Shown in pieces: positions 6,026 to 39,014 of a stretch of DNA of 64,000 nt (positions are counted from its first letter, which is position 1; each line of letters begins with the position of its first letter). Below the pieces are notes generated by a model. It did not search any database. It was given only the letters and a program-made list of their open reading frames with translations, and had not been told where the DNA came from. Position numbers and translations under genes: made by a program. Source of the DNA: Paracoccus sp. (in: a-proteobacteria) (lineage in GTDB: Bacteria; Pseudomonadota; Alphaproteobacteria; Rhodobacterales; Rhodobacteraceae); the NCBI GenBank assembly GCA_040392885.1, contig JBEBVF010000001.1:27505-91504 (forward strand). Reading direction: 5' to 3'.

Positions 6026-6112
6026 GCGGCCGTGGCGGAACTGGTAGACGCGCAGCGTTGAGGTCGCTGTGGGGTAACACCCGTGGAAGTTCGATTCTTC
6101 TCGGCCGCACCA
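6026..6112 (+). tRNA. tRNA-Leu (anticodon GAG)
   Basis: GCGGCCG acceptor stem, TGGCGGAACTGGTAGACGC D-arm, cagcg-TT GAG GT-cgctg anticodon arm, long variable arm, GTTCGA T-loop, encoded CCA. Confidence 0.95.
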
Positions 6113-23183: not shown

Positions 23184-24359
23184 ATGCCCCACATGGTCGA
23201 GCTTGTCGACGATCTCGGACGCCTCGGGGATATCGGACCACAATGGGCAGAGCTGCACGCCGCGGCGGGCGGCGGGCCGTTCTCCTCGGCCGAATGGCTG
23301 GCGGCCTGGGCCGCGGCCTATGGCGGTCAGGGGGCGGCGCCCTGCATCGGGCTGGCCTGGTCCGGCGGGCGGCTGCTGGCCGGCATGCCGCTGGGGCTGC
23401 GGCGCGGGCGGGTCTCGACGAGGGGGCCGCGCGTCGGCAAGCTGGTGATGCTCTGCGACGAGCGAGCCGGGTTTCACGAGGTCCTCGCCCTTCCCGGCCC
23501 CGAGGGGCAGGCCGCGGTGGCGGCGCTGCTGGAGGGCTGTCTGGCGCGGGGCGGCTGGGAGTTGGCCGACCTGAACCCGGTTCTGGGCTCGGCCGCGCTC
23601 GACGGGCTGGCGGCGCGCGCGCAGGCGCAGGGCCTTGCCGTCTGGCGGCGCGAGGAGATCCGGCGCGCGGTCTGCGACCTGTCGGCCGGCTGGCAGGGCT
23701 ATCTGGCGCGGCGCAGCGGCAACTTTCGCAAGTCGATCCGCGTGGCGCGCAAGCGGGTCGAGGCGGAGTGGGGCACGCTGCGCATCCTCCGCGGCGGCGA
23801 GCCCGATGCCGATGCCGTGCTGGAACGGGCGCTGGCCGTGTCGGCGCGCTGCTGGAAGGCGCGGATGGGCACCGATATCGGCTCGAATCCGCGGGTGCGC
23901 GCCTTCATGACCGAGATCTGGACCCGGTTCTCGGCCCGCAAGGCGGCGCGCATCCTGCTGCTCAGCATCGGCGGCCGCGATGCCGCAAGCTGTTTCCTGC
24001 TGCGTTCCGGCAATCGCGAATACGGGTTCATCACCGATTTCGACGAGGATTTCGCCGCGCTGTCGCCGGGGCGTGTCATCGTCTCGCATGCGCTGGAAAC
24101 CGCGGCGGCCGACGGGATCGCGGTGTTCGACATGATGCGGCTGACCCCGTTCTGGGAGCGCTTTGCCGATGAGATCCAGAGCTTCGAGCGGCTGCGCCTC
24201 TGCCGGCGGTTCGGGCTGGCCTGGCTGTGGCTGTCGGTCGAGGAACGCGCCCGGCCGCTGGGGCGCGAATTGCGAAAACGTTACCGGCGGCGCAGCCATA
24301 CCCGGATAGCATTCAAGGACAGGTCCAGCGAGAGGGAGCGCAGCGATGAGGATGCGTGA
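23184..24359 (+). CDS. CelD/BcsL-type GNAT acyltransferase (HfsK-like), copy 1
   Basis: GPFSSAEWLAAW, CDLSAGWQGYLARRSGNFRKSIR, FDEDFAALSPGRV, FDMM; Arg-rich C-terminus. Confidence 0.8.
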   Translation: MPHMVELVDDLGRLGDIGPQWAELHAAAGGGPFSSAEWLAAWAAAYGGQGAAPCIGLAWSGGRLLAGMPLGLRRGRVSTRGPRVGKLVMLCDERAGFHEVLALPGPEGQAAVAALLEGCLARGGWELADLNPVLGSAALDGLAARAQAQGLAVWRREEIRRAVCDLSAGWQGYLARRSGNFRKSIRVARKRVEAEWGTLRILRGGEPDADAVLERALAVSARCWKARMGTDIGSNPRVRAFMTEIWTRFSARKAARILLLSIGGRDAASCFLLRSGNREYGFITDFDEDFAALSPGRVIVSHALETAAADGIAVFDMMRLTPFWERFADEIQSFERLRLCRRFGLAWLWLSVEERARPLGRELRKRYRRRSHTRIAFKDRSSERERSDEDA

Positions 24360-25542
24360 TTGGCCGCCGATGCGCCGCGCCGGCCGCATCGGCCTGGCAC
24401 TGGCGCTGCTCGCCGCCCCGGCGGCGGCCGAGACGCTGACCATGGAGCCGGGCGACACGGTGGCGGTGTCGGTGCTGGGGCGCGCGGACCTGAGCGGCAG
24501 CTTTACCCTGCGCTCGGACGGCACGATCTCGATGCATGTCATCGGCGCAACGAAGGCGGCGGGCCTGACCGAGGCCGAGCTGGAGGACAGTCTGGAGGCG
24601 CTGCTGACCGGCGAAATGCAGCTTCCCTCCTCGGTCACCGTCTGGGTGGACAGCTGGCGGCCGGTCTATGTGCTGGGCGGCGTGGTGGCGCCGGGCGCCT
24701 TCGACTATCGGCTGGGCATGACGGTCGAGCAGGCGGTGGCGCTGGCCGGCGGCTTCGATCTGGGCACCGTGACGGGTTCGAGCAGCCTCAGCATGCGGGT
24801 GGTGGATCAGGCCGCCACGCTGGACGAGATCGGCCTGCGCCTGACCGAACTGTCGGTGCGGCGCGCCCGGCTGGAGGCCGAGGCCGCCGAACTCGACAGC
24901 TTCGCCGGACAGGCCGGCGGCGAGGGCGCGGCGGCCGCGATGACGGCCGAGCAGCAGCGCCTGTTCGAGAGCCGCGGGCAGGTGGTGCAAAACCGGCTGG
25001 AGGCGGCGGACGAGGTCAAGGTCCTGGCCGGAAACGAGGCCGATTCGCTGGCCGCGCAGCGCGAGTTGCTGAGCCGGCAGATCGCCGAGCAGGAGGCCAG
25101 CGTCGCGGACCTGCAATCGCTGTTCGACAAGGGGCTGGCCAGTTCCGAACGGCTGCGCGAGGCGCGGCGCGGGCTGACCGCGGACCGCATCGAACTGATG
25201 ACCGCCGCCAGCTTCGAGGCGCGGGCGCGTCAGGAGGTGGCGGCGGCCGATGCCTCGGTCAGCGATTTCATGACCGGCCGCCAGCGCGACATTGCCGAGG
25301 AACTGGCCAATATCGGCAGCCAGCAGCGCGCCGCCGAGCAGGAACTGGCCGCCGCGCAGCATTTCCTGGCCGAATTCGGCCCGCGCGTCGGCTATCTCGA
25401 CGGGGAGCTGGGACCGCCGGTGTTCCGCGTCACCCGCCGCAACGGGGCGGCGACCGAGCTGCTGGAACTGGCCGCCACCGACCCGCTGCGCCCCGGCGAT
25501 CTGGTCGAGGTGGTACGCGAGCCGGCTCAGCCCACCGAGTGA
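24346..25542 (+). CDS. Polysaccharide export protein (OPX; Wza/ExoF-like)
   Basis: Signal peptide, PGDTVAVSV, DGTISMHVIG, VYVLGGVVAPGAFDYR, coiled coil, LRPGDLVEV. Confidence 0.88.
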   Translation: MRMRDWPPMRRAGRIGLALALLAAPAAAETLTMEPGDTVAVSVLGRADLSGSFTLRSDGTISMHVIGATKAAGLTEAELEDSLEALLTGEMQLPSSVTVWVDSWRPVYVLGGVVAPGAFDYRLGMTVEQAVALAGGFDLGTVTGSSSLSMRVVDQAATLDEIGLRLTELSVRRARLEAEAAELDSFAGQAGGEGAAAAMTAEQQRLFESRGQVVQNRLEAADEVKVLAGNEADSLAAQRELLSRQIAEQEASVADLQSLFDKGLASSERLREARRGLTADRIELMTAASFEARARQEVAAADASVSDFMTGRQRDIAEELANIGSQQRAAEQELAAAQHFLAEFGPRVGYLDGELGPPVFRVTRRNGAATELLELAATDPLRPGDLVEVVREPAQPTE

Positions 25543-27530
25543 CCGGCTGCCGCCGCGGCGGGGCCCCGCCCGGCCAGCCGCGCCAGGATGGCGAGGTTGC
25601 GGCTGTTCTCCTCGGGCGTCGAGATCGGCAACAGGAAATAGCGCTGCTTGTAGAATGCCTTCTCGCCCAGATAGATGCCCTCCTCGGCAAAGACCTCGAC
25701 CACCCGTGTCAGGGTATCGGGCAGCTCCACCAGCATGAAGGGTGCCTGGCTGGGCACCACGTCCAGCCCGAGGCCGGTCAGCGCGCCGGCCATGCGGCGA
25801 CGCTCGGCCGTGGTGGTGTCGAAGATGTGCTGCTGATGGGCGGTGGCGCCGAGGGCGGCGGTGGCCGCCACCTCCGACAGGCGCGAGATGGAAAAGATGC
25901 GCTCGCCGCGCTTGAGCCATTCGACATGTTCCGGCCGGCCATAGGCATAGCCGACCCGCGCCCCGGCCAGCGCATAGAACTTGGAGAAGGTGCGCAGGCC
26001 GAGGATCGGCCGGGTTTCGGTGTCGATGAGGTCGCGGGCGGTCACCGCCTCGGGGTCGTCGACATATTCGGCATAGGCCTCGTCCAGCAGGATCGGGATG
26101 CTGTCGGGCACCATGGCGAGGAAGCGGGCGAAACCGGCCTTCTTCAGCACCACCCCTTCGGGATTGGAGGGCGAGATCAGATAGATCAGCCGCGTCGCCG
26201 GGCCGACCGCCGCCGCCACCGCATCGAGGTCGTATTCAAAGCCCGCGCCGGTGCGGCGCAGCGGCACCATGGTCGCATCGAGCGCCCGCTTGCCGACCAG
26301 CATGTTGAAGCCGAACCAGCCCGGCCTGGCCGATACCACCTTGTCGCCGGGCCGGGTCAGCATTTCCAGCAGCCGGTCGAGGATCTCCCACGAGCCGTTG
26401 CCGATGGCAAAGCAGTCGGAGTCCAGCCGCATCCTCGCCGCCAGCGCGGCGCGCAGCGCGCCATGGGTCTCGTCGGGATAGACCGCGGCGAGGCGCGGCG
26501 TCGTCGCGGCGCCCAGCGCCGCCATCACCTCCGGCGCGGCGCCGTAATGGTTCTCGGCCCGGTCATAGATGGTGAAATCGGTATCGGTGCGGGCAACGGT
26601 GCGGCCGTTATGGACATAGACGGGATAGGTGAAGGCCGGCACCTGAGCGATCGGGGTGGCGGTGTGCAGCTCGGCCTCGGCATCGGCCAGGAGCCGCCAG
26701 GCCGAAAGGCTGCGCCCGGAGACGAGGGCCGCCGGCGCGCTGGCCACCCGGATGAAGGCCGGCAGCAGCGAATCGGGTTCCGGCAGCAGGCTGGCCTTCA
26801 GGGTGCCCAGGGTGCGCTCGGTCATGCCGGTATGCACGCTGCCCAGCCGCAGAGTGGTGACGACGATGCCCGAAGCGGCCGCTTCGGCGGCCAGCTGCAT
26901 GGTCAGCCCCTCCAGCCCGTGCTTGGACACCGCATAGGCGGAATGGCCGGGCTGCGGCCGCTCGACCGCGCCGGTCGAGACATTGATGATCCGGCCATGG
27001 CCTTGGGGCAGCATGACCCGCAACGCCGCCTGGGCGGCCCGGAAGGCCCCGCCCAGATTGGCATCGAGGACCGCCATGAACTCGGTGTCCGGCAGATCCG
27101 CGAGGACGGGATGGCCCGCCTCGGCAATGCCGGCATTGTTGATCAGGATGTCGATACCGCCGAGCCGGTCGGCGACCTCGGCAAAGGCGCGCCCGACCTG
27201 ATCGGCGCGGGTCAGGTCGGCGGCGACGGCGAAGGCCCCGCCGCCGATGGCGCTGGCCGCGGCCTCGCCCTCGGCGGCGGAGCGCGACAGGATGGCCACG
27301 CGGCAGCCCTGCGCGGCCAGCCCCCGCGCCACCGCCAGCCCGATGCCGCGATTGCCGCCGGTTACCACGACGCGGCGGCCGGCGAGGCCCGGCTCCGGGT
27401 CCGCGGGCAGCGGCGCCGCCGGTCCAGCGCGGCCGCGCCGCTTGCGCCGGCCGCGGCCGGTGGCCTTGCCGAGCAGATCGAGGGTGACGGCGATATTGCG
27501 GCGCAGGCGGCGCCCCAGGCGGCTGGTCAT
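25527..27530 (-). CDS. SDR oxidoreductase / class I-II (HisC-like) PLP aminotransferase fusion
   Basis: N-half: VVVTGGNRGIG, LINNAG, INVSTG, YAVSK. C-half: YPD, GNGSWE, SPSNPEG, LLDEAYAEY, RTFSKFYALAGARVGY. One uninterrupted frame. Confidence 0.82.
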   Translation of the reverse strand: MTSRLGRRLRRNIAVTLDLLGKATGRGRRKRRGRAGPAAPLPADPEPGLAGRRVVVTGGNRGIGLAVARGLAAQGCRVAILSRSAAEGEAAASAIGGGAFAVAADLTRADQVGRAFAEVADRLGGIDILINNAGIAEAGHPVLADLPDTEFMAVLDANLGGAFRAAQAALRVMLPQGHGRIINVSTGAVERPQPGHSAYAVSKHGLEGLTMQLAAEAAASGIVVTTLRLGSVHTGMTERTLGTLKASLLPEPDSLLPAFIRVASAPAALVSGRSLSAWRLLADAEAELHTATPIAQVPAFTYPVYVHNGRTVARTDTDFTIYDRAENHYGAAPEVMAALGAATTPRLAAVYPDETHGALRAALAARMRLDSDCFAIGNGSWEILDRLLEMLTRPGDKVVSARPGWFGFNMLVGKRALDATMVPLRRTGAGFEYDLDAVAAAVGPATRLIYLISPSNPEGVVLKKAGFARFLAMVPDSIPILLDEAYAEYVDDPEAVTARDLIDTETRPILGLRTFSKFYALAGARVGYAYGRPEHVEWLKRGERIFSISRLSEVAATAALGATAHQQHIFDTTTAERRRMAGALTGLGLDVVPSQAPFMLVELPDTLTRVVEVFAEEGIYLGEKAFYKQRYFLLPISTPEENSRNLAILARLAGRGPAAAAAGHSVG

Positions 27531-28690
27531 GATGTTTCGTCCCTGACGGCGGCCGGGCGGTCGCGGGGGCGCAGCCCGTCGCGGACCGGCCCCGTCAGCC
27601 GGTCGCAGATATCCTCGAAGGCGCGGACGGCGCCCGGGATCAGATAGGGGGTCACCCGCTCGGCGGCGGCCTGCCGCCTGGCCGGGTCGTCGGGCTCGAG
27701 CAGCGCGGCGTGCAGCGCCGCGGCCATGGCCGGCACGTCGCCGGGCGGCACCAGCCGCCCCAGCCTGCCGTCTGCCAGGATGTCGCGCGGGCCGGGGCAA
27801 TCGCTCGCCACCACTCCGGCGCCGGCGGCCAGCGCCTCGACGAGGACATTGCCGAAACCCTCGCGCCGCGAGCCGAGGGCCAGGACCCGGGCCCGCGCCA
27901 GCTCCGGCATCAGCGAGGCGGTGACGCCCGCCAGCGTGATGCGGCCGGCCATGCCCAGCCGGGCGATCAGCGCGGCCAGCCGCGCATGGTCGGGGCCCTC
28001 GCCGAATATCTTCAGATGCAGTTGCGGATGGTCGGGGACCAGGCGGGCCACGGCCTCGATGACGGTCTCATGGCCCTTGTCAGGCACCAGCCGGCCCGCC
28101 GCGACGACCCGGCCGGCGATGCGCGGCGGCGGCGCCCGCGCCAGCCCGGCCAGCAGCTCCGGGGCCAGCACGGGATTGGGCGCGACCGCATGCGCCAGCC
28201 CGTGCAGGCCCAGCGTGTCGATCCAGTCCCGGGCCAGGGTTTCGGTCGGGGCCACCAGCAGGTCCGCCCGCGGATAAAGCGCCCGCACCAGCCCGCGCCG
28301 CGCCCGCGGCCGGCGGGCCGAGGCCAGATAGGCGGCGGCCTGGGTATGTTCGCTGACGATGATGCGCGGACGCCGGGCGCCGCGCCAGGGCAGGGTGGCA
28401 AGCAGCACGGCGATGTTCATCGCATTGGTGCCGGAATAGACCAGATCGACCCGCTGTTGCGCCAGCCAGCGCGCCAGCACCGGCCCCAGCAACAGCGCCC
28501 GCCGCCCGCCGGCATCATGGACCGGAATGTCGGCAGGGAGGCCGTCCAGCAGGGCGCCTTCGGCTTTCCTGAGGAAAAGCAGCGGCGTGAAACGCTCGCG
28601 ATCGAGGCCGACGAGCAGGCGCAACACCACATGCTCGATCCCGCCGGTTTTCAGATGCGGCAACAGGAAGGCAATACGAGTCTTGCGCAT
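27527..28690 (-). CDS. GT4 glycosyltransferase
   Basis: GGIEHV, GRLVPDKG, SRREGFGNVLVEALAAG. Confidence 0.92.
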   Translation of the reverse strand: MRKTRIAFLLPHLKTGGIEHVVLRLLVGLDRERFTPLLFLRKAEGALLDGLPADIPVHDAGGRRALLLGPVLARWLAQQRVDLVYSGTNAMNIAVLLATLPWRGARRPRIIVSEHTQAAAYLASARRPRARRGLVRALYPRADLLVAPTETLARDWIDTLGLHGLAHAVAPNPVLAPELLAGLARAPPPRIAGRVVAAGRLVPDKGHETVIEAVARLVPDHPQLHLKIFGEGPDHARLAALIARLGMAGRITLAGVTASLMPELARARVLALGSRREGFGNVLVEALAAGAGVVASDCPGPRDILADGRLGRLVPPGDVPAMAAALHAALLEPDDPARRQAAAERVTPYLIPGAVRAFEDICDRLTGPVRDGLRPRDRPAAVRDETS

Positions 28691-28812: not shown

Positions 28813-29616
28813 ATGCAGAGATTTTCTGATCATGTGGTCGGGATGGTGCGAGGCAGCCTGAACCTCTCGCGGGTTTCCGCGCTGGCGGCGGTGGCGCTGC
28901 TGTCGCTGGCCACCAATGGCGTGGCGGCGGCGGCCCTGCCGGCCTGCGCGACGCCGCAGCTCTCGGGGTTCGAGACCGGCAGCGATCCCGCCGAGGGTTT
29001 CTCCAGAACCCAGTTGCAGCGCGGCGAGATCACCCTGACCGCCGACCCGGTGGACGGCGGCAACCGGGCCGCCTTCATGAGTGCCGAGCGCAAGCGCGGC
29101 GGCGAGGTGGGCAAGTCCGACCTGATCCTCGCCTTCTCGCCCGTCGGCGCCGGCCGCACCATCGAGATGGGCGGGCGGTTCCTGTTTCCGGCCGAGTCGC
29201 GGCTGGACAGCCTGATTCTGATGGACCTGGAATGCGCCTCCTGCGGGCTCGATACCAATCCCGGCATCCGCCTCTATCTGCGCGACGGCCTGTTGCGGGT
29301 GGATCGCTCCAAGATCGGCATCGAGGAGCCGTTCCTGCCCGGCGTGCCGCTGGCCCTGAAGACCGGCGGCTGGCATGAGATCAGGTGGGAGGTCACGCTG
29401 GGCATCGGCGCCGCCGGGCGCAGCCGGGTGTTCGTCGACGGCAGGCAGGTCCTGGACGCCCAGGGCACGACGCTGCTGAGCCAGGCGGTCGTCAAGCAGT
29501 TCGCCCCGATCAAGGTGCGCGAGCAGGCCGACCGCTTCCAGATCGGGCTGACGGCGAATTCCAACACCACCCGGCAGAGCCTGTATCTGGACGATGTGAG
29601 CATCTGCGCCCGATAG
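28813..29616 (+). CDS. Secreted polysaccharide lyase-like protein (beta-jelly-roll/LamG-like)
   Basis: Signal peptide; LMDLEC, PGIRLYL, GGWHEIRWEV, RVFVDG, YLDDV pattern of jelly-roll lyase-type proteins; lies inside the EPS locus. Confidence 0.6.
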   Translation: MQRFSDHVVGMVRGSLNLSRVSALAAVALLSLATNGVAAAALPACATPQLSGFETGSDPAEGFSRTQLQRGEITLTADPVDGGNRAAFMSAERKRGGEVGKSDLILAFSPVGAGRTIEMGGRFLFPAESRLDSLILMDLECASCGLDTNPGIRLYLRDGLLRVDRSKIGIEEPFLPGVPLALKTGGWHEIRWEVTLGIGAAGRSRVFVDGRQVLDAQGTTLLSQAVVKQFAPIKVREQADRFQIGLTANSNTTRQSLYLDDVSICAR

Positions 29617-29620
29617 GCCC

Positions 29621-30694
29621 TCAGGCCGAGGTGCAGGCCCGGACCATGCGCGCGATGGCGGGTTCGGTCACCCCTTCATGGATCGGCAGGCGCAGGACGT
29701 GGCGTTTCAGCGCCGCGGCCTCGGGGAAGCCCGACAGGTCGATGGCCGGGTGAAAGCGCCGCCAGAAGCGCACCGGCTCGATCCCGGCGCGGGCAAGAGC
29801 GGCAAACACCCGGTCCGGCTCGGCGGTCCAGAGGGGGAAATAGGCCGGGCAGGCGCCCGCGGGCAGGACCTCGATCAGCGGCCGCAACGCGGGCATGGCC
29901 GGAAGCCGGGCGGCCAGCGCGCGATAGTTCCGCCGTCGCACGGCGGCCACCCGCTCGTGATCGACATGCCCGAGCATGAAGCGGGTAATGCGCGAGGCGT
30001 GATCGCGCCGCGCCTCGTCACCGAAACCGGCGACGGCATCCCAGCGGTCGAGATCCGCGCCGCCCCGATCCCGCGGCCCGCTGCGGACCCGGCGGCGCAA
30101 GGCATTGGCCGAAAGCGATTTCAGTGCCGCCAGCGTGTGCCGCAAGGGCGGACGGCCCAGCGCGGGCAGCACCGCGTCCCGGCGCATCCACAGCGCGCCA
30201 CCATCCGGCACCCCCAGCGTCTTGACCAGCGAGAACACCGCCATGTCGCCGGCGCGTCCCAGCGGCGCCCCATCCGCGCCCCGCGAATACAGGCCCAGCG
30301 CCAGATCCTCGACCAGCAGCGCACCGGCCGCGCCGGCCAGATCGGCCAAAGCTGCCAGCGGCTGTTCCCGGCCGAAATAATGGATGACATGGATGGCGCC
30401 GCCACCCGCGCGCAGCAGCCGCGCCACATCGTCGAGATCGGCGCTCAGGTCGCGCCCCAGCCGATAGGGCACCGGCCGGCCGCCGGCGGCCAGGATGGCA
30501 TCAACCTCGGAGCCGCAATGCCATGCCGGCACCAGCACCCGCGCGCCACCCCGCAACCCGAGCGCACGCAGCCCGGCCCAGATCGCGGTGCGGCCATTGG
30601 CGGTCAGATGCGTGCGGGCATCGCCGAAGGGAAATGGCACCGGGCTGCGGCCGAAGGGGCCGGGCGCCGGGGATTTGGCGATGATACGGGTCAC
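29621..30694 (-). CDS. Short DegT/DnrJ-type PLP enzyme
   Basis: GRTAIWAGL, VLVPAWHC, VIHYFG, VEDLAL, FSLVKTLGVPDGG (PLP lysine), LRLPIH; GTG start overlaps the flippase stop (GTGA). Confidence 0.75.
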   Translation of the reverse strand: MTRIIAKSPAPGPFGRSPVPFPFGDARTHLTANGRTAIWAGLRALGLRGGARVLVPAWHCGSEVDAILAAGGRPVPYRLGRDLSADLDDVARLLRAGGGAIHVIHYFGREQPLAALADLAGAAGALLVEDLALGLYSRGADGAPLGRAGDMAVFSLVKTLGVPDGGALWMRRDAVLPALGRPPLRHTLAALKSLSANALRRRVRSGPRDRGGADLDRWDAVAGFGDEARRDHASRITRFMLGHVDHERVAAVRRRNYRALAARLPAMPALRPLIEVLPAGACPAYFPLWTAEPDRVFAALARAGIEPVRFWRRFHPAIDLSGFPEAAALKRHVLRLPIHEGVTEPAIARMVRACTSA

Positions 30695-32307
30695 GGCGTG
30701 CCCCCGCGGCCGAGCCGGCGTGCCAGCCGCCGTGTCAGCGCCCGGACCTCGGGGAGGCCGGTCAGCGCGGCGCTCAGCAGAAAGGTCAGCCCGCCCGCGG
30801 CACCGGACAGGCCAAGCGCCGCCAGCATCCGCAGCCGGCCGGCATCGCCCGCCGGCAGCACCGCCTCGCGCGTCAGCCAGATGGCGATGCCGGCCAGCGC
30901 CGAGGCCAGCGCCAGGCTGACGAAGGGCCGCAGCTCGCCCACGCGGACCGGCGCGCCGCTGTGACGCGACAGCCAGATCCACAGCATCACGAGGATGCCG
31001 GCCATCGACAGCAGCGCGCCGACCGGCACCGCGACGAGGCCCAGCCGCGGCACGAAAGCCAGGTCGAAACCGATGCGCAGGGCCAGCCCCAGCGCCGTCG
31101 ATCCGGCGATCATCGCCAGTTGCGGCAGCCTTCCATCGGCAAAGATCGCCGAGACCAGCGACCCCAGCACGGCATTGATCGGCATCAGCAGGGCCAGGAT
31201 GGCGAATACCGCGGCGGTGATGCGCGCATCCTCGGCGGTGAAGCGGCCATGCTGGAGGACGACATGGATGAACGGCCCGCCCAGCAGCACCAGGCTGACC
31301 GCCAGCGGCAGGATGAAGAACAGCGAGGTGCGGATGGAATCGCGCACCAGCACGCGAAAGGCGGCGCCGTCGCGCTCGGCCGAGGCGATGGCGAAATGCG
31401 TGTAATAGACCAGAACCACGCTGTTGGTGACCAGCCCCGGCGTCATGTTCACCATGCGCTGCGCAAAGTCGTAGGCGGCGACCATGCCCTCGCCGGTGGT
31501 CGAGGCGAAGGCGATGTCGATCCAGCCGGCGCCGATGATGTGGAACTGCGCCACCAGCATGGCGACGATGCGATGGCGGCCCAGCTCGGGCGGCGGCTGC
31601 GCCGGGGCGGGCACGACCGGGGGGTGGTCGCGCGCGAATACCCGCCGCCCGGCCAGGCCGAAGGCGACGCCCATCACGACCGTGCCCAGCAGGGTCGCGA
31701 CCGCCAGCCCGCCAAGGCCGAACCCCGCCACCGGCACCAGCAGCAGGGCGAGGAGAATCGCCAGCCGCGGCGCCAGCCGCGCAAGCACCGGCAGCGAATA
31801 GAGTTGCAGCGCGTTCAGCGTGGCCCCGGACAGCGCCGTGACCGCCGAGATCGGCATGCCCAGCAGCAGGATGCGGAAATACAGCACCGCCCTGTCCACC
31901 CGGTCGGCATCAAAGCCCGGCGCCAGCAGCCGCACGATCGGCTCGGCCAGCAGCAAGCCGAGGGCGGTTGCCGCCAGGCTGACCAGCAGCAGCCGCCGGG
32001 CGCTGACGGAAAGCCGGAGGCGCAAGACCTCCATCCCCTCGTTGCGGGCGACCCGGACCAGCGGCGGTACCTGCAGCAGGTGAAAGGCCCGCTCCAGCCC
32101 CATGGCGAGGTTGGAGGTCACCCGCCGGCCGAGGAAATAGGCATCCGTCGCCGCCGAGGCCCCGTAAAGGGTGGCGATGCCCATGGCAATCAGCAGCCCG
32201 AGGACCGAACCCAGCCCCTTCAACAGCGTGACGCTGACGATGCTCAGCATGGTCCGGGGCGCACCGCGGCCGGTATCGGGACCGGCCGGGTGCGGCGCGG
32301 CCGTCAT
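30691..32307 (-). CDS. MOP-superfamily flippase (MurJ/Wzx-like)
   Basis: LYGASAATDAYF, LLAPGF, YDFAQR, LQHGRFTAED; 12-14 TM segments. Confidence 0.85.
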   Translation of the reverse strand: MTAAPHPAGPDTGRGAPRTMLSIVSVTLLKGLGSVLGLLIAMGIATLYGASAATDAYFLGRRVTSNLAMGLERAFHLLQVPPLVRVARNEGMEVLRLRLSVSARRLLLVSLAATALGLLLAEPIVRLLAPGFDADRVDRAVLYFRILLLGMPISAVTALSGATLNALQLYSLPVLARLAPRLAILLALLLVPVAGFGLGGLAVATLLGTVVMGVAFGLAGRRVFARDHPPVVPAPAQPPPELGRHRIVAMLVAQFHIIGAGWIDIAFASTTGEGMVAAYDFAQRMVNMTPGLVTNSVVLVYYTHFAIASAERDGAAFRVLVRDSIRTSLFFILPLAVSLVLLGGPFIHVVLQHGRFTAEDARITAAVFAILALLMPINAVLGSLVSAIFADGRLPQLAMIAGSTALGLALRIGFDLAFVPRLGLVAVPVGALLSMAGILVMLWIWLSRHSGAPVRVGELRPFVSLALASALAGIAIWLTREAVLPAGDAGRLRMLAALGLSGAAGGLTFLLSAALTGLPEVRALTRRLARRLGRGGTP

Positions 32308-32531
32308 GCGCGCCCCGTGGCGCTGCCGCATGTCCCCGGCCGGCGGCATGGCCGGAGGACGAGCCTCGCCGGTTTTCGGACCCGATGGTGCATGATGCGC
32401 GGCTCCAACCTCCCTCGGCGTGGCCTATTCTTAATGCATTCATGAAACGCTGTTAATTCTTCTGTGCGACTCGCCGGTATTAGTGTAACACAATACCTCT
32501 GGACCCAGTAAGGGTCCTTATTCGGGAGTGT

Positions 32532-33671
32532 ATGATGCTCCAAACCGACAACCCCCGCGAGAATCATTTCCAAGTCGTTTCCGCCCCAACCATTTCTCCC
32601 AATAGTTGTGCAACTCTGGGGGAATTCGCATTTGCAGCATCGCGACCCCTGCCCCGTCCCCGCGGCCTGCTGTCGGGGGCGGAATTGCGCGCCGGCTATC
32701 TGGTCGAGAATGAGGCGCTGGATGCAATCTACAACCGGACGCTGGCAGCCATGCTGCTGATAATGATTTCGCCAATCTTTCTGGTCATATGCGTCCTGAT
32801 GAAGCTGACCACGCCCGGCCCGGTCCTTTACCGCGGCGCGCGGCTGGGGCGGGGCCGGAAGGTCTTCCACATGCTGAAGTTCCGCACGCTGGCGACAGAG
32901 GCCGCCCGCCTCACCCGCGACCGGACGCTGCCGCGCCACAACCTCTGCGAGACCCCGCTCGGCACCTATCTGCGCAAGTCGCGCCTCGACGAGCTGCCGC
33001 AGCTGCTGAACATCCTGCGCGGCGAGATGGTGTTCTACGGCCCGCGCCCGATTCGCCCCGAGGTCGAGGACCACTACATGTCGGCCGCGCCGAGCTATGC
33101 GCTACGCTTTGTGGTGCGGCCGGGGCTGATCGGGCTGGCGCAGGCGCGGCTGACGCACGAGACACCAAAGGCCGCGCGCGCCCGGCTGACCGCGATGTGC
33201 TGCCGGGCGCCGGTCAACTATCCCCGGCAGACCGTGTTCATCACCTGGATCGGGCTTTGCGTCCTGTGGCGCACGCTGACCGCGATCGGCGATGCGCTGG
33301 GCGATCTGGCCTCGCCGATCCACGGGCACAAATGGCTGCGCTCGGGGTTCAGCCGCCCCTCCGCCAGCCGCATCGAGATCATCACCGACAACGAGACCCG
33401 GGTCGCGGTGCTGAGCGGCATTTCCGACGAGATCGTGCAATTCGTCTCGCCGCGGCGGCTGGCGCCCCGGCGTTATTCCGCCGAATTGGTTCGCCAGCGA
33501 CGACGGCATCGAATTGCACGGGTTCCGGTGACGATAAATCTGCAAATCGTCACCCCGGTCGGAGTAGGACAGCCGGGGGTCGCCCATTACGCCGCCTATC
33601 GCGTCAATTCGGACTATTCCCGATACATGATCGAGCGCTATTTCCTGCGTTCGGCCGTGGTTCCGTCCTAA
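32532..33671 (+). CDS. Priming phosphoglycosyl transferase with C-terminal extension
   Basis: SPGPVL-like PGPVLYR, LKFRTL, SRLDELPQLLNILRGEM.FYGPRP, VRPGLIGLAQ; about 110 extra beta-rich residues; true start may lie downstream. Confidence 0.85.
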   Translation: MMLQTDNPRENHFQVVSAPTISPNSCATLGEFAFAASRPLPRPRGLLSGAELRAGYLVENEALDAIYNRTLAAMLLIMISPIFLVICVLMKLTTPGPVLYRGARLGRGRKVFHMLKFRTLATEAARLTRDRTLPRHNLCETPLGTYLRKSRLDELPQLLNILRGEMVFYGPRPIRPEVEDHYMSAAPSYALRFVVRPGLIGLAQARLTHETPKAARARLTAMCCRAPVNYPRQTVFITWIGLCVLWRTLTAIGDALGDLASPIHGHKWLRSGFSRPSASRIEIITDNETRVAVLSGISDEIVQFVSPRRLAPRRYSAELVRQRRRHRIARVPVTINLQIVTPVGVGQPGVAHYAAYRVNSDYSRYMIERYFLRSAVVPS

Positions 33672-33710: not shown

Positions 33711-35123
33711 ATGATCCAGCAATATGCCGAGCTTTTGCGCCATTACCGCAGGCTGGTGGCGACGATATTTTTCGGCATTGTCGGCGGCGTGGGATTGGTC
33801 AGCACCTTCTTTCTGTTCGTCATGCCGCTTTATACCGCGACCACGACGGTCAGCCTGCTGCCCACCCAGTCGGAACTGGCCTATAGCGATGCGTTTTCAC
33901 GGGGCGGCTCGCTCAACCCCGCCAATCTGATGAGCGAGACCCATATCGAATACCTGCTCAGCCGCGAGACCGCGCAGCGCACCGTCGACCGGCTGATCGC
34001 CGAATACGGCACCCCGGAGCCGGTGGTGCGCAGCGGTTTCCGTGCCGTGCTGGGCGACGGCTTCCGCCTGTTCAAGAATACGCTGCGCCGCGTCTACAAC
34101 CTCCTGAATTCGGGCAAGCACGTACCGATCGACGCCTATACCGATGCCGTGCTGAGCATGCAGGATTCCATCGACGCCGAAATGGTCGAGGGCACCTATA
34201 TCCTCGAATTGTCGGTGACCTGGGATTCCCCCGAAGTGGCCGCGGCCGCCGCCAACATGCTGGCCGATGTCTATGTCGAGCGCGCCCGCGAACAGGCCCG
34301 AGACGCCGCATTGCAACTGGAGCAGGAACTGACCGCGCAGCTGGAGCGCAATACCGGCATCTCGCCCGAGATCAGCAGCCAGATCGAGGCACTGCGGCTG
34401 GCGCGGGCGACGGGGTTCAACGTGCTGCGGGTGGTCGACCGGGCCAGCGTGCCGGTCTATCCCAGCTTTCCCAAGGTGGTCATCAACGTGCTGATCGCCA
34501 TCGCCGCGGCCCTTGTGCTGTCGATCTTTGCGCTGGTCAGCATCGACACTTTCTCGGGAAAGGTGACGACCCGCGGCGATCTGGCCCGGCTTCTGGGCGG
34601 GCTCGCGCTGCCGACCAGCCGGCCGCACGACCTGCGCCGCGCCGCCGGGGCCGCGCGCCTCCTGCGCCTGCATGCCGATGTGAACGGCACCCCCGGCGCC
34701 GTGCTGTCGCTGGAAGGCGACCGCGACGCCGACCTGGCCGCGGCGCTGCTCGAACGCGCGCTCTGGCCGGGGCTGAGCCCGTCGCGGCAGGGTGCCGGGG
34801 CCGCGCGGTCGGTGCTGTTTCTGGACAGCCGGCGCCGCGACGCGCTGGCACCGGGACGGACGCGGGTGGCCGTCGGCGCCGAATCGCTGGCCGATCCCCC
34901 CGGCGCCGCCACCAGGCCCGAGGCCGCCGCCAAAGCGGTGCCGGGCATGGTCAGTCTCGGCGGCGCCGCCGAGAGCTTTTCGTTGGCCGGCCTGTCCATG
35001 CCGTCCTGGCTGGTGATCGTGATGCGCCCCGGCCGCATCACGGAGGCCGAATTGCAGCGCGTGGCTGAGGAATGGCGGCAGCGCGGCGTTCCGGCGGTCT
35101 TCGGCATGTTGTTGAAGGCGTGA
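33711..35123 (+). CDS. Polysaccharide co-polymerase (Wzz/Wzc-like) with degenerate C-terminal domain
   Basis: N-terminal TM, PLYTATTTV, AAAAANMLADVY, RVVDRASVP...P.P, second TM; no Walker A in the C-terminus. Confidence 0.75.
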   Translation: MIQQYAELLRHYRRLVATIFFGIVGGVGLVSTFFLFVMPLYTATTTVSLLPTQSELAYSDAFSRGGSLNPANLMSETHIEYLLSRETAQRTVDRLIAEYGTPEPVVRSGFRAVLGDGFRLFKNTLRRVYNLLNSGKHVPIDAYTDAVLSMQDSIDAEMVEGTYILELSVTWDSPEVAAAAANMLADVYVERAREQARDAALQLEQELTAQLERNTGISPEISSQIEALRLARATGFNVLRVVDRASVPVYPSFPKVVINVLIAIAAALVLSIFALVSIDTFSGKVTTRGDLARLLGGLALPTSRPHDLRRAAGAARLLRLHADVNGTPGAVLSLEGDRDADLAAALLERALWPGLSPSRQGAGAARSVLFLDSRRRDALAPGRTRVAVGAESLADPPGAATRPEAAAKAVPGMVSLGGAAESFSLAGLSMPSWLVIVMRPGRITEAELQRVAEEWRQRGVPAVFGMLLKA

Positions 35124-35126
35124 CCC

Positions 35127-36416
35127 ATGCCGGACGGAGCCCTCCCCCCGTGCGCTGTCCCTCTGTCGCAGGGCACCGTCCGGGCCGCGCGCGACCGCAT
35201 CGCCCTGCGCCGGCGGGCGGTGGCGATCTGGTCGGCGGGGGTGCTGGCGATCCTGGCCGCAGGGGTTGCCGCCCGGGCCACCGGGGCGCCGGGCGGACTG
35301 GCGGGGGGCGGGGTACTGGCCGGGCTGGCGGCATGGCGGCTCTTGCAGGACCGGTTCATGCGCACCACCGGCGGCATTCCCGTCCTGACCTGGCACAGCG
35401 TCAGCCGCGATGCCGGCTGGCTGCCCTGGGCCGAGGCGACCTCGGTCACGCCCGAGACGCTGGACCGGCAACTGGCCCTGCTGCGCCGGATGGGCTGCCA
35501 GAGCATGGACAGCGTGGAATTCGTCCGCCGCCGCATGGCCGGCGCGACCGTGCCGCCCGAGACGGTGATCCTGCATTTCGACGACGGCTATCTGGACAAC
35601 TGGGTGGCCGCCGCCCCGCTGCTGGCGCGGCATGACATGCGGGCCAGCCTGTTCGTCTCGCTGGATTTCATCGCACCGCCGCGACCGGTGCCGGCGACGA
35701 TCCTCGACCCCGGCGCGGTGCTGCGCTGGGACGGCTATCTGTCCTGGGACGAGCTGCGGGCCCTGGATGGCGGCGCCTTTGGCGGGGCATTCGGGATCGA
35801 GCCCCATGGCGTCGATCATGGCCGCGTGCCCGTCGGGCCGAGGGTGGTGGATCACGTCGACCCCGGCAACTGGCGGCGGCTGGCCTGGGTGCAATGGGCG
35901 GCGATGCCCGGCGACAAGCACGACTGGTATGTCTCCGACGCGCCGCCGGCGCGGGGCCATGGCACCCCCGTCCATGAAAGCGCCCCGGCGCTGGCCGCCC
36001 CGGCCTGGAGCCCGGGCGGCGGCGAGGACGAGGCCGCCTATAGCGCCCGCCTGTTGCGCGACCTACTGGCCTGCCGGCAGGCCTTCCTGACCCGGCTCGG
36101 CCGGGCGCCGAACATCTTCTGCTGGCCGCAGAACCGCGCCAGCGATGCCGGCCGCGCCATCGCCGCCGAGACCGGCTATCTGGCGACCACCGCCGGGCAT
36201 GGCACCAACCGCGCCGACGAGGACCCCGCCATCCTTTCGCGCGTCCATGTCGGCGAGCGGGTGGCCGGGTTCCGCTGGCCGGCGGCGGACGACCTGTTCC
36301 TGCGCGCCACCATCCTCGGCTTTCGCGGCAATCACTACTGGTATTTCCCGGTGCTGGCGCTGTCGCTGCTGCGGCGGGCGGTCACCGCCCTGCGGGTGGC
36401 GGGAGGTGGCGCATGA
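35127..36416 (+). CDS. Membrane-anchored CE4 polysaccharide deacetylase
   Basis: N-terminal hydrophobic segments, PVLTWHSV, HFDDGYLDN, HGVDH, FCWP. Confidence 0.85.
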   Translation: MPDGALPPCAVPLSQGTVRAARDRIALRRRAVAIWSAGVLAILAAGVAARATGAPGGLAGGGVLAGLAAWRLLQDRFMRTTGGIPVLTWHSVSRDAGWLPWAEATSVTPETLDRQLALLRRMGCQSMDSVEFVRRRMAGATVPPETVILHFDDGYLDNWVAAAPLLARHDMRASLFVSLDFIAPPRPVPATILDPGAVLRWDGYLSWDELRALDGGAFGGAFGIEPHGVDHGRVPVGPRVVDHVDPGNWRRLAWVQWAAMPGDKHDWYVSDAPPARGHGTPVHESAPALAAPAWSPGGGEDEAAYSARLLRDLLACRQAFLTRLGRAPNIFCWPQNRASDAGRAIAAETGYLATTAGHGTNRADEDPAILSRVHVGERVAGFRWPAADDLFLRATILGFRGNHYWYFPVLALSLLRRAVTALRVAGGGA

Positions 36417-37795
36417 TCGGGCTGGGCCTGCGTCTTTCCGGGCTGGCCGCGGGTTTCCTGCTGCTGTCGCTGATCATCGTGGCGATGGGTTCGGCCTCGC
36501 TGATGCTGTCGGCGGCGCTGGTGCCCGGCCTGGTCATCGGCGCCGCCATTGCCTGCCAGCCATTTGCCGGGCTGGTGCTGCTGGTGGTCTTTGCCCAGCT
36601 CGACGCGGTGGCCAACATCGTCTCGCAGGCACTGCCGATCTCGCTCTACAAGCTGCTGACGCTGGCGGTGCTGGGCGGGTTCGGGCTGATGGCGGTGGCT
36701 GGCCCGCGCCCCCTGCGGCTGGGCGAACGCTCGCGCGAGATGCAGGTCACGGTGCTGTTCGCGCTGGCCATGGCGCTGTCCTTCCTGCTTTGCGAATACA
36801 AGGGCGCGGCCATGGGGCGGCTGATCGGGTTCTACAGCGTGATCCTGCTGTTCTTCCTGATCTCGGTCCTGGTCGATTCGCCGCGCCGGCTGGAGGTGCT
36901 GGTCTGGGCGCTGGTGCTAACCGGGCTAGTCTCCTCGGTGCTGGTGCTGCTCGACACCTTTCTCGGTGTGCGGCTGGTCTCGACCTCGGCGGCGGCGGCG
37001 ACGGCGCAGTTCAACGGCCAGGCCCGTTCGGCGGGCGGGTCCGACTACAACCCCACCACGGCCGCGCATATGCTGATGGCGACCACGATCATCGCCGGGG
37101 TGCTGCTGGTGCGCCATCCCCGCTGGCGGGCGCTGAGCGGGCTGGCCTTCGCCCTCGGCGTGCCGGCGCTGGTCTTCACCTTTGCCCGCAGCGCCGCCAT
37201 CGCCTTCGCCGTGGTGGCGCTGGTCTTCGTCTGGCGCCAGCGCCGGCACCGGCTGTTTCCGTTCCTGCTCATCCTCGGCCTGATCGCGCTGGGCGCGGGG
37301 CTGTTCTTCGTGCCGCCGCTGTTCTGGGCGCGGATGCTGACGCTGCTGGATTTCGGCCTCGACCGGACGCTGCTGCGGCGGGTGTCCTACAACATCATCG
37401 GCTTCGAGCTGTGGGTGCAGCACCCGGTCCTGGGCATCGGCCCGGGCAATTTCCCGCAATATTACGCCGGGCCGGATTTCCGCTGGTTCCCCGGGCGCGA
37501 GCCGATGCCCCGGCAGCTGCACAACACCTATATGGAGCTGCTGACCGAGACCGGGCTGGTCGGGCTGGGCCTGTTCCTGGGCGTCATGCTGGCCTGCCTG
37601 CGCAAGGCCGCGCAGGTGGCGCGGCGCGGCGCCGGCCCGGTGGCGCCGCTGGCCGAGGCGCTGGCCTATGCCTTTGCAGGCTTCCTGCTGGCCTCGGTCT
37701 TCATGCCCAACGAGGACACCAAGTTCATGTGGCTCCTGCCCGGCCTGTGCCTGGCCGCCTGGCGGCTGGCGCGCCCGGAAACGGAAGGGGGCTGA
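36413..37795 (+). CDS. Wzy-like polymerase / O-antigen ligase family protein
   Basis: About 12 TM segments; TFARSA, HPVLGIGPGNF, LHNTYMELLTETGLVG. Confidence 0.88.
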   Translation: MIGLGLRLSGLAAGFLLLSLIIVAMGSASLMLSAALVPGLVIGAAIACQPFAGLVLLVVFAQLDAVANIVSQALPISLYKLLTLAVLGGFGLMAVAGPRPLRLGERSREMQVTVLFALAMALSFLLCEYKGAAMGRLIGFYSVILLFFLISVLVDSPRRLEVLVWALVLTGLVSSVLVLLDTFLGVRLVSTSAAAATAQFNGQARSAGGSDYNPTTAAHMLMATTIIAGVLLVRHPRWRALSGLAFALGVPALVFTFARSAAIAFAVVALVFVWRQRRHRLFPFLLILGLIALGAGLFFVPPLFWARMLTLLDFGLDRTLLRRVSYNIIGFELWVQHPVLGIGPGNFPQYYAGPDFRWFPGREPMPRQLHNTYMELLTETGLVGLGLFLGVMLACLRKAAQVARRGAGPVAPLAEALAYAFAGFLLASVFMPNEDTKFMWLLPGLCLAAWRLARPETEGG

Positions 37796-37796
37796 G

Positions 37797-39014
37797 ATGC
37801 GCCTGGCGATCATCGTCACCGAATATCCCAAGACCACCGAGACCTTCATCCTGCGCGACGTGATGACCTTTCTGGCCGCCGGGACCGACCTGCGCCTCTA
37901 TCACCTGACCCCCTATCGCCGGACCGAGATCCTGCACGACTTCGCTGCCCCGACCCGGGGGCTGGCACGGCATGTCGGGCTGGCCGGCTGGCGCGGTATC
38001 GGCGCCGCGGCGCGCCGCCCCGGCCCGACGGCGGCCCGCGCCGCCCGGATCATCCGCGAGCAGGCGGCCGAGCCGCTGCTGATGGCGAAATCGCTGGCTT
38101 TGCTGCCGCAGGCCAGCGCCATTGCCGCCGAGCTGCGCGACTGGGGCGCCGATCACGTCCATGCCGAATTCGCCGGCCATCCGGCGACGGCGGCCTGGAT
38201 CGTCCATCACCTGACCGGCATTCCCTACAGCGTCAGCTGCCGCGCCCATGACATCTTCCGCACCCAGCGGCTGCTGGAGCAGAAGCTGGGCGATGCCGCC
38301 GTGGTGCGCACGGTCAGCGACTATGCCCGCGCCTTCCTGCTGGAGCGCGTGCCCGGCCTCGATCCCGCCAAGGTCGAGGTGATCCATTCCAGCCTCGACA
38401 TCGCCCATATTCCGCTGGAGGACCCGCCGCCGCAGGCGCCGTTCCACATCCTCTATGTCGGGGCCCTGCAGGTCAGGAAGGGCGTAGACGTGCTGCTGCG
38501 GGCGCTGGCCGGGCTGGCCATTCCCGACTGGCATTGCACAGTGGCCGGCGACGGGCCGGAACGCACCCGGCTGGAGGCGCTGGCCGCCGGCCTCGGCCTG
38601 GCGCAGCGGGTGCGTTTCCTCGGCAGGCAGGGCTTCGAGCACGTCGCCGGGCTCTATCGCGAGGCCAGCGTGATCGTCGCGCCCTCGGTGATCGGGCCGA
38701 AGGGGCGGACCGAGGGCATCCCCAATGTGATGATCGAGGCGCTGGCCTTCCGGCGCCCGGCGATCTCCACCACCGTTTCCGGCATCCCGGAACTGATCAT
38801 CGACGGGGTGACCGGGCGGCTGGTGGCGCCCGGTTCGGTCGAGGCGCTGCGCGCGGCCCTCGCGGCGGTCCATGCCGACCCCGCCGCCGCCTGGGCCATG
38901 GCCTGCGCCGGGCGGCGCCATGTCGAGGCCGGGTTCGACCTGCGCCGCAACGCCGCCCGGCAACTGGTGCTGTTCGAGGCCCATCGCGCCCCCGGCTTGC
39001 GGAGGGCGGGATGA
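37797..39014 (+). CDS. GT4 glycosyltransferase (WcaL-like)
   Basis: YPKTTETFI, HVHAEFA, VGALQVRKG, EGIPNVMIEALA. Confidence 0.9.
   Translation: MRLAIIVTEYPKTTETFILRDVMTFLAAGTDLRLYHLTPYRRTEILHDFAAPTRGLARHVGLAGWRGIGAAARRPGPTAARAARIIREQAAEPLLMAKSLALLPQASAIAAELRDWGADHVHAEFAGHPATAAWIVHHLTGIPYSVSCRAHDIFRTQRLLEQKLGDAAVVRTVSDYARAFLLERVPGLDPAKVEVIHSSLDIAHIPLEDPPPQAPFHILYVGALQVRKGVDVLLRALAGLAIPDWHCTVAGDGPERTRLEALAAGLGLAQRVRFLGRQGFEHVAGLYREASVIVAPSVIGPKGRTEGIPNVMIEALAFRRPAISTTVSGIPELIIDGVTGRLVAPGSVEALRAALAAVHADPAAAWAMACAGRRHVEAGFDLRRNAARQLVLFEAHRAPGLRRAG

Follow-up and report, generated by a model that had tools for sequence, protein, structure and literature searches.

Four PF13480 paralogues in a Wzx/Wzy-type exopolysaccharide locus of Paracoccus

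We describe four genes of the Pfam family Acetyltransf_6 (PF13480), encoding GNAT-type proteins designated here GNAT1 to GNAT4, that lie in a single exopolysaccharide (EPS) locus in the genome of an uncultured Paracoccus sp. (assembly GCA_040392885.1). According to Pfam and NCBIfam scans, the locus is a complete Wzx/Wzy-type cluster of ~21 kb, and it spans positions 23184-44406 of the window, i.e., of the whole 64,000-nucleotide stretch that was analyzed (contig JBEBVF010000001.1, positions 27,505 to 91,504 of the forward strand; G+C content ~70%). We consider it fairly probable that these GNATs are ancient, non-redundant and cytoplasmic paralogues transferring acyl or aminoacyl groups onto amino groups. 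By analogy, the structures that they decorate are probably amino sugars. A preliminary description of this DNA had reported three divergent HfsK-like paralogues alongside a deacetylase. Its observation was largely right, as all three genes are genuine members of PF13480, except that the genes number four, since GNAT4, which is not among the three listed, lies between two of the others.

In the mechanism that we favor, each GNAT would transfer an acyl or aminoacyl group to an amine carried by the repeat unit or by a nucleotide-sugar precursor, and this transfer would occur at the inner face of the membrane. The amines would be provided by a DegT aminotransferase, by an SDR-aminotransferase fusion protein and by a membrane-tethered CE4 deacetylase acting in the cytoplasm. 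Combined with a sulfotransferase encoded in the same locus, the GNATs would give rise to a heavily decorated polymer.

A set of four divergent genes

GNAT1 (23184-24359, + strand, 391 aa), GNAT2 (40162-41295, + strand, 377 aa) and GNAT3 (43288-44406, + strand, 372 aa) are open reading frames (ORFs) with a coding-type G+C content at third codon positions (0.87-0.90). PF13480, the family of CelD/BcsL/UppA/HfsK and of BioF2-like GNATs, has a Pfam gathering score of 22 bits, and the three proteins reach 92.8 bits (E 2.8e-26), 55.4 bits (E 9.8e-15) and 45.0 bits (E 1.5e-11), respectively, which confirms the membership in Acetyltransf_6 that had been proposed for them. GNAT4, encoded on the + strand between GNAT2 and the sulfotransferase gene from a GTG codon at 41292 to position 42374 (360 aa), also exceeds the gathering score, with 31.6 bits. 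All four matches were re-found in a profile search of the whole genome.

As anticipated in the preliminary description, the paralogues are divergent. GNAT1 shares 33% identity with its sister GNAT2 (BLAST E 3e-39) and 24% with GNAT3 (E 9e-5), and no similarity of GNAT4 to GNAT1-3 was detectable by BLAST. The shared motifs had to be redrawn: none of the proteins contains F..W..AW or DL...L...R..R in literal form, but the looser forms [FY]S...[WF]...[WM], [SC]WK and L[SG]PG[RK] are present in all of GNAT1-3. SPG as such is found in GNAT1, in GNAT2 and in HfsK, GPG stands in its place in GNAT3, and GNAT4 has neither. No signal peptide or transmembrane segment was found in any of the four GNATs by Kyte-Doolittle hydropathy at the transmembrane threshold.

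The sole NCBIfam match of GNAT1-3 is BspF, the Brucella protein crotonyl-transferase, with scores of 18-31 bits where the cut-off is 775 (E 1e-7 to 1e-3). FemAB-type matches also fall below their cut-offs, i.e., for GNAT4, FemAB (PF02388) at 22.6 bits against 24 and the PEP-CTERM-associated FemAB model TIGR03019 at 21.1 against 260, and for GNAT1, FemAB_like at 13.5 bits against 27. Judged from its sequence, GNAT4 leans toward being the most FemAB-like of the four.

Three of the genes are embedded in an operon. ATGA or GTGA overlaps occur between the CE4 and Wzy genes, and at every junction of the series GT4b-GT2-GNAT2-GNAT4-sulfotransferase-GNAT3, including the ATGA shared by the GT2 gene with GNAT2 and the GTGA that contains the start of GNAT4. 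GNAT1, at the other end of the locus, overlaps the downstream Wza gene by 14 bp.

A fifth match to PF13480 in the genome (378 aa; contig C2, positions 940-2076 of locus L002) lies away from any EPS genes, and is flanked by YbaK-like and ribosome-hibernation-factor-like genes, as judged from translations only. Its sequence looks like that of a different subfamily, unrelated to the EPS locus, and a counterpart was found in Caulobacterales genomes.

The fold of GNAT1

AlphaFold2 was applied to one paralogue, GNAT1, with an alignment of 20 sequences as input. The resulting model (mean pLDDT 88.9, pTM 0.84) displays two alpha/beta GNAT-like halves followed by a long C-terminal helix. In Foldseek searches, its best neighbor in the PDB is FemX of Weissella (1xe4/1ne9/4ii9; E 2e-13 to 3e-12, TM score 0.59-0.70). 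FemX is followed by the peptide synthases Sbb17/Sba18, which depend on aminoacyl-tRNA, by the clavulanate tandem GNAT, which binds acetyl-CoA, and by the aminoacyl-phosphatidylglycerol synthase domain of MprF; VipF is also close. Searches of PDB sequences with GNAT1 and with a profile of the four paralogues gave no match even at E 10. The model makes us confident that GNAT1 is a FemX-like tandem GNAT with a C-terminal extension. HfsK has been described with the same architecture (PMC5362036), and the HfsK-type structure suggested in the preliminary description is thereby borne out for GNAT1.

Conservation and distribution of the locus

Word-indexed homologue searches with the GNATs gave few matches, and the counts of relatives reported here come from an exhaustive search, in which GNAT1 retrieved 7,464 clusters formed at 50% identity at E<=1e-3 and 42 at E<=1e-30. 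The named sources of GNAT1 orthologues are all metagenome-assembled genomes (MAGs) of Paracoccaceae, including Cypionkella and Amaricoccus, and a search with an alignment of GNAT1 orthologues led to four related loci, again all in Paracoccaceae MAGs. In other MAGs of this family the four paralogues are all kept at 47-58% identity, and the gene set of the whole locus is kept at 47-71% protein identity in Paracoccaceae MAGs whose G+C content ranges from 56 to 70%. Conservation of the full set of four argues for functional, non-redundant paralogues.

Gene order is less constant. In a Cypionkella MAG, PF13480 matches at 15226, 32399, 33528 and 35555 of one contig follow the order and spacing observed in the window. 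In two other Paracoccaceae MAGs, the halves of the locus are joined the other way round (GT2-GNAT2-GNAT4-sulfotransferase-GNAT3-GNAT1-Wza), so that all four GNAT genes lie side by side. Two GNAT genes thus bracket the locus in the window and in Cypionkella, as had been pointed out, but not in these two MAGs, and bracketing must be seen as a local permutation rather than as a design feature. GNAT1 stays associated with the half of the locus that encodes DegT and the SDR-aminotransferase.

A homologue of GNAT1, used as a marker of the locus, was found in none of 24 genomes of the same genus, and the locus is therefore accessory. These genomes are too divergent from the source genome (~50% identity, no synteny of the flanking genes) to place the borders of an island, and no tRNA gene was found at the locus borders. 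The patchy occurrence of the locus suggests horizontal transfer or repeated loss.

In one Paracoccaceae MAG (GCA_041397345.1; locus L009, 5757-8001), the orthologues of GNAT2 and GNAT4 are each divided into two ORFs (249+168 aa and 224+143 aa), which results either from a frameshift or assembly error or from gene decay. The GNAT4 orthologue of another locus, L019, gives a continuous tblastn match of 297 residues.

Basic C-terminal helices and the comparison with HfsK

The C-terminal helix of the GNAT1 model (residues 345-390) is strongly basic: RPLGRELRKRYRRRSHTRIAFKD. Arg and Lys account for 14 of the last 40 residues of GNAT1 (binomial P=3e-4) and for nine of 40 in GNAT2 (P=0.08), where enrichment is marginal overall and the richest 20-residue window of the protein lies in the tail. 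With six of 40 (P=0.35), the tail of GNAT3 is not enriched, nor is that of GNAT4. The Arg-rich C-termini that had been ascribed to all three paralogues are thus significant in GNAT1, local in GNAT2 and not found in GNAT3. The richest 20-residue tail window contains 10 Arg+Lys in GNAT1 and nine in GNAT2, and HfsK contains seven in its last 40 residues. The tail motif of the GNAT1 clade, E.LRP[LI]GR..RR....R.RKR.AFKD, is kept in orthologues down to ~35% identity, and the motif G[HK]RR.G.RK.VRRADV is kept in the tails of GNAT2 orthologues. We regard the basic C-terminal helices of both GNAT1 and GNAT2 as functional elements that have been conserved. By analogy with HfsK, whose tail is required for membrane association and activity (PMC5362036), they would most likely anchor these proteins at the anionic membrane or at the lipid-linked substrate.

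HfsK itself is a cyclic di-GMP (c-di-GMP)-binding protein (PMC5362036), as the preliminary description correctly cited. Its sequence was recovered by searching Alphaproteobacteria with the NCBIfam HfsE model, repeating the search within the taxonomic order of the best matches, which led to a Caulobacter-type genome with an HfsE of 883 bits (above the cut-off), and searching that genome with PF13480. The recovered ORF (361 aa, TTG start) has Arg at positions 102, 112, 151, 240, 267, 352 and 353, i.e., at all seven positions mutated by Sprecher et al., and we conclude that it is HfsK or its orthologue. It shares 21% identity with GNAT1 over 304 residues (E 2e-6), and hundreds of relatives are closer to GNAT1 than HfsK is. 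The two proteins are therefore homologous at the family level only and are not orthologues. Two determinants of c-di-GMP binding have been published for HfsK, namely R112, a surface Arg of the first GNAT domain, and RR352/353 in the C-terminal extension beyond the FemX core. R112 of HfsK aligns to Cys in GNAT1 and to Val in GNAT2, in a segment where the alignment is poor. The sole invariant column in an alignment of 14 sequences is that of R352, although the region around it aligns loosely. The HfsK tail (AEALPLGRISELPGKAMRRIDLLRGLH) has its PLGR start in common with the GNAT1-clade motif and otherwise a single aligned Arg; since Arg aligns easily by chance inside Arg-rich tails, we rate this likeness as suggestive only.

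HfsK (CC3689) and its paralogues CC2278 and CC1244 of Caulobacter crescentus nevertheless share much with the proteins described here. They are cytoplasmic PF13480 members of ~360-390 aa with a FemX-like tandem GNAT fold and a C-terminal helical extension carrying an Arg cluster after the PLGR start, several ~30%-identical paralogues coexist in one genome, and the Wzx/Wzy adhesin or EPS pathway with which they are genetically associated likewise includes a CE4 enzyme (HfsH). In several phyla, genes for HfsK orthologues are grouped with those for EPS (PMC5362036). Beyond the low identity and the non-conserved R112, the differences are that the tails of GNAT1 and GNAT2 are far more basic and have conserved motifs of their own, and that a single locus contains all four GNAT genes, in contrast to hfsK and its paralogues, none of which is part of the hfs cluster. 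The HfsK label thus holds for these GNATs at the level of family and fold only.

In Caulobacter, c-di-GMP captured two of the three HfsK paralogues (PMC5362036), so that binding of this molecule cannot be deduced from family membership. The Paracoccus genome encodes two GGDEF proteins, both outside the locus, and of the larger window ORFs covered by the scans, none matched GGDEF, EAL or the Pfam PilZ model. Rfam gave no match of any kind in the window, c-di-GMP riboswitches included, a weak negative given that the same whole-window scan at gathering thresholds also missed the tRNA-Leu(GAG) found at 6026-6112 by ARAGORN. Nothing tested here supports c-di-GMP control through the GNATs, which we do not favor.

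Candidate sources of acceptor amines

The deacetylase that had been noted alongside the GNAT genes is encoded at 35127-36416 (+ strand). It matches Polysacc_deac_1 with 34.2 bits against a cut-off of 23.1, aligned over residues 141-178 only, as well as a PgaB-N-like NCBIfam model with 68 bits, and the motifs HFDDGY and HGVDH, read in its sequence, correspond to the Asp-His-His metal site of CE4 enzymes. The protein begins with an Arg-rich segment followed by ~40 hydrophobic residues, which form a two-helix membrane hairpin that is clearest in the L009 orthologue, and then by DRWMRTR. The positive-inside rule predicts a catalytic domain that is tethered to the membrane on its cytoplasmic side. 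The enzyme is thereby predicted to share the compartment of the GNATs, which lack signal peptides, and deacetylation followed by reacylation is topologically possible.

Two further proteins could supply amino groups, which makes the CE4 enzyme one of three possible sources. One is a DegT/DnrJ/EryC1 sugar aminotransferase of 357 aa with a GTG start (29621-30694, - strand; Pfam 56.7 bits), whose gene is masked by a longer, spurious + strand ORF (29678-30964) without any family match. It was revealed through the gene call in locus L010, an 88%-identical relative, and the DegT proteins of the two loci are 86% identical. The other is a 667-aa fusion of an SDR dehydrogenase with a HisC-like class I/II aminotransferase, identified from Pfam and NCBIfam (25527-27530, - strand; ATG at 27530, ORF open to 27800). 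Its orthologues measure 667-671 aa, and its gene adjoins a GT4 gene in all related loci. A 757-aa version of this ORF was initially read as a BioF-like alpha-oxoamine synthase, an assignment that was rejected because NCBIfam places the protein among HisC-like enzymes. The fusion may be a source of an unusual amino substituent.

Natural single-chain fusions join PF13480 to DegT (P0026, P0028), to Sulfotransfer_3 (P0022, a 725-aa protein from a metagenome) and to GT4 (P0027). The PF13480+DegT fusions, along with the tendency of GNAT1 to travel with the aminotransferase half of the locus, indicate that amines made by aminotransferases are at least as likely to be acceptors as those freed by the CE4 enzyme. 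The proposal that the GNATs act on CE4-freed amines therefore stands as topologically possible, but has to accommodate two further amine sources and the existence of these fusions. Four GNATs facing three amine sources suggest a mixed picture. The sulfotransferase gene is ATGA-coupled to both GNAT4 and GNAT3, and this coupling, together with P0022, suggests a functional link between sulfation and one of the GNATs.

Other genes of the locus

Immediately downstream of GNAT1 lies the gene for a Wza-like outer-membrane polysaccharide export protein (24346-25542, + strand; Poly_export and SLBB). The SDR-aminotransferase gene is then followed by a first GT4 glycosyltransferase gene, GT4a (27527-28690, - strand), and by a gene coding for a polysaccharide-lyase-like protein (28813-29616, + strand), which is kept in all related loci although its Polysacc_lyase match of 24.6 bits is below the cut-off; this protein may trim or recycle the polymer. 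Beyond the DegT gene, the locus encodes a Wzx/MurJ-type flippase (30691-32349, - strand), a priming polyprenyl-phosphate glycosyl-phosphate transferase (32532-33671, + strand; Bac_transf), and a Wzz/PCP-like chain-length protein (33711-35123, + strand) with weak matches to GNVR and eps_transp_fam. The CE4 gene is followed by those of a Wzy-type polymerase (36413-37795, + strand; Wzy_C), of a second, EpsE-like GT4 glycosyltransferase, GT4b (37797-39014, + strand; likely start ATG 37797 in an ORF open from 37668), and of a GT2 glycosyltransferase (39011-40165, + strand). These assignments rest on Pfam and NCBIfam matches. Between GNAT4 and GNAT3, and translationally coupled on both sides, is the gene of the Sulfotransfer_3 sulfotransferase (42371-43291, + strand; Pfam). 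The flanks of the locus are unrelated to it, with Ldh_2, MFS and DAO genes upstream and AAA_28 and DUF924 genes downstream.

A candidate c-di-GMP input was noticed in the priming transferase, whose C-terminal 125 aa (33294-33668, + strand) have no Pfam match even at E 10 and are nearly invariant in seven orthologues. In the AlphaFold2 model, this tail consists of a barrel of six strands (pLDDT ~90) and one helix, with the predicted PilZ-fold domain covering residues ~275-375 of the protein. PilZ domains, or proteins that contain one, make up 34 of its best 36 Foldseek matches in the PDB (E up to ~0.09), among them Alg44, PA PilZ, MotI, MrkH, PlzA, MapZ, BcsA and YcgR (E from 3e-4, TM score up to 0.71). 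Its motifs are non-canonical, RSGFSR standing for RxxxR and SGISDE for [D/N]xSxxG, and both are invariant in the seven orthologues. If this EPS is controlled by c-di-GMP, the modeled PilZ-fold tail would be a more conventional input than the tails of the GNATs. A recent paper (2025) considered post-translational control of Wzx/Wzy pathways to be poorly understood, as opposed to that of c-di-GMP-regulated synthase pathways (PMC12802240), and a PilZ-type domain on a Wzx/Wzy priming enzyme, as predicted by the model, may be the more interesting feature of the locus.

Weighing the alternatives

Several considerations weigh against our proposal that the GNATs modify amino groups of the polymer or its precursors. 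No EPS-associated member of PF13480 has a biochemically defined donor or acceptor, and N-acylation of amino sugars is consequently proposed by analogy. The sole characterized PF13480 enzyme found in NCBIfam, BspF, is by its NCBIfam name a protein crotonyl-transferase, the solved folds closest to GNAT1 mostly depend on aminoacyl-tRNA rather than on acyl-CoA, and the fold model covers one of the four paralogues, GNAT1. The source genome is a MAG of 94.6% completeness in 208 contigs. In Hirschia baltica, the triple deletion of hfsK and its paralogues was without holdfast phenotype (PMC8449245), which indicates that members of the HfsK family can be dispensable.

The preliminary description held that each GNAT re-acylates CE4-freed amines with a different group, and that the Arg-rich C-termini are gated by c-di-GMP as in HfsK. 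For the enzymatic part of this scheme, established precedents exist in the deacetylase/N-acyltransferase pairs NodB/NodA and LpxC/LpxD, among others, and the CE4 gene, whose product has a predicted cytoplasmic catalytic domain, belongs to the same operon as GNAT2, GNAT4 and GNAT3. However, a single CE4 enzyme is not obviously able to supply four different acceptor amines, two aminotransferases are present, PF13480+DegT fusions exist, and GNAT1 goes with the aminotransferase half of the locus and not with the CE4 gene. For the regulatory part, one can invoke the conserved Arg clusters in the C-terminal helices of GNAT1 and GNAT2, the PLGR tail start shared with HfsK, the R352 column, which alone is invariant in 14 sequences, and the two GGDEF proteins of the genome. 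These arguments are countered by the 21% identity between HfsK and GNAT1, by the lack of conservation of R112, by the weakness of Arg alignments within Arg-rich tails as evidence, by the tails of GNAT3 and GNAT4, which are not enriched in basic residues, by the capture of two rather than all three Caulobacter paralogues, and by the modeled PilZ-fold domain of the priming transferase as a simpler c-di-GMP input. Taken as a whole, this scheme appears quite unlikely to us, and CE4 coupling and c-di-GMP gating of the GNATs are possible but not favored. There is also a slim chance that the tails of GNAT1 and GNAT2 are HfsK-like switches that release the enzymes from the membrane upon c-di-GMP binding and that, in conjunction with the PilZ-fold tail of the priming transferase, the pathway is controlled at both initiation and decoration. 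If so, the chemistry of the polymer, and not just its amount, would vary with c-di-GMP. On present evidence, the modeled PilZ-like tail of the priming transferase would be a better candidate for c-di-GMP input than the GNATs are.

The similarity to FemX raises the question of whether one or more GNATs, GNAT4 above all, are instead Fem-type, aminoacyl-tRNA-dependent transferases, adding an amino acid (e.g., Gly, Ala or Ser) through an amide linkage to an amino sugar or a uronic acid of the lipid-linked repeat unit, with the basic helices binding the acceptor arm of the tRNA. The best structural neighbors of GNAT1, i.e., FemX with peptidyl-RNA, Sbb17/Sba18 and the aminoacyl-phosphatidylglycerol synthase domains of MprF, point in this direction, as do the weak matches of GNAT4 to FemAB (22.6 bits) and TIGR03019 and of GNAT1 to FemAB_like, and a basic helix would suit nucleic-acid binding. 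Yet every FemAB-type match lies below its curated cut-off, the acetyl-CoA-binding clavulanate tandem GNAT and VipF are close folds too, and BspF, from the same Pfam family, uses crotonyl-CoA by its NCBIfam name; we regard such a role as possible but doubtful. It is very improbable, in our opinion, that some of the paralogues have lost catalytic activity and act as scaffolds, or are BspF-like protein acylases not directed at glycans. BspF is indeed the only NCBIfam match of GNAT1-3 (E 1e-7 to 1e-3), GNAT4 lacks SPG/GPG, and the orthologues of GNAT2 and GNAT4 are split in L009. Still, 18-31 bits are to be compared with a cut-off of 775, the four proteins are kept at ~50% identity over a long distance and translationally coupled inside a glycan operon, and the splits occur in one MAG only, the L019 orthologue of GNAT4 being continuous over 297 residues. 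We retain transfer of acyl or aminoacyl groups onto amino groups of the glycan or its precursors as the preferred function of the four GNATs.

Relationship to known systems and significance

Beyond HfsK, the locus can be likened to several characterized pathways. In Agrobacterium, the unipolar polysaccharide (UPP) requires both the BcsL-like protein UppA, whose gene lies beside those of PCP and Wza, and a paralogue of it, UppQ (bioRxiv 10.1101/2021.04.22.440995). The Agrobacterium tumefaciens cluster uppA-uppB(PCP)-uppC(Wza) thus starts with a CelD/BcsL-type GNAT gene next to export genes, as does the GNAT1-Wza pair, and in both cases more than one paralogue is associated with one polymer, UppQ being needed for the same polymer as UppA; the likeness noted here is one of gene content and layout. 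The two UPP paralogues, however, are encoded at separate loci rather than four in one locus, and neither a sulfotransferase nor an aminotransferase fusion has been reported for UPP. CE4, DegT and a BioF2-like acetyltransferase also occur together in a Wzx/Wzy cluster of Actinoplanes (PMC13390465). FemX/FemABX proteins resemble GNAT1 as tandem GNATs, FemX being its best structural match. The pairing of a FemAB-like protein (TIGR03019) with a CE4 enzyme (TIGR03006) in XrtA/PEP-CTERM systems is a recognized theme of EPS loci, but GNAT4 scores 21 bits against a cut-off of 260 for TIGR03019, and neither an exosortase gene nor a PEP-CTERM gene was noticed in the window. In Nod-factor synthesis, NodB, NodA and NodH carry out CE4 deacetylation, N-acyl transfer and sulfation on a GlcNAc-type backbone made by a GT2 enzyme in the cytoplasm. 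The combination of CE4, N-acyl transfer, sulfotransferase and GT2 would be comparable here, by analogy only, whereas NodA is not a GNAT and nothing in the locus shows that the CE4 product is a GNAT substrate.

PF13480 is itself common, being found in 187 of 301 sampled alphaproteobacterial genomes (62%), many of which carry 4-9 copies. Among the matches listed, at least four alphaproteobacterial loci have three PF13480 copies within ~10 kb, one more has three within ~16 kb, and paired copies as well as fused doubles occur several times. Some larger proteins (750-1,160 aa) contain between two and four stretches of PF13480. The Paracoccus locus is therefore an ordinary instance of a known genomic theme, one that is biochemically unsolved, and its modest interest lies in the unsolved biochemistry of the family and in the conserved basic tails of two of its members. 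EPS-associated PF13480 proteins (CelD/BcsL, UppA/UppQ, HfsK) are widespread and genetically important for adhesins. The candidate partners near the four GNATs differ (DegT, SDR-aminotransferase, CE4 and sulfotransferase), and since the locus is compact and conserved and its four members are divergent, it could help to assign specificities within this family.

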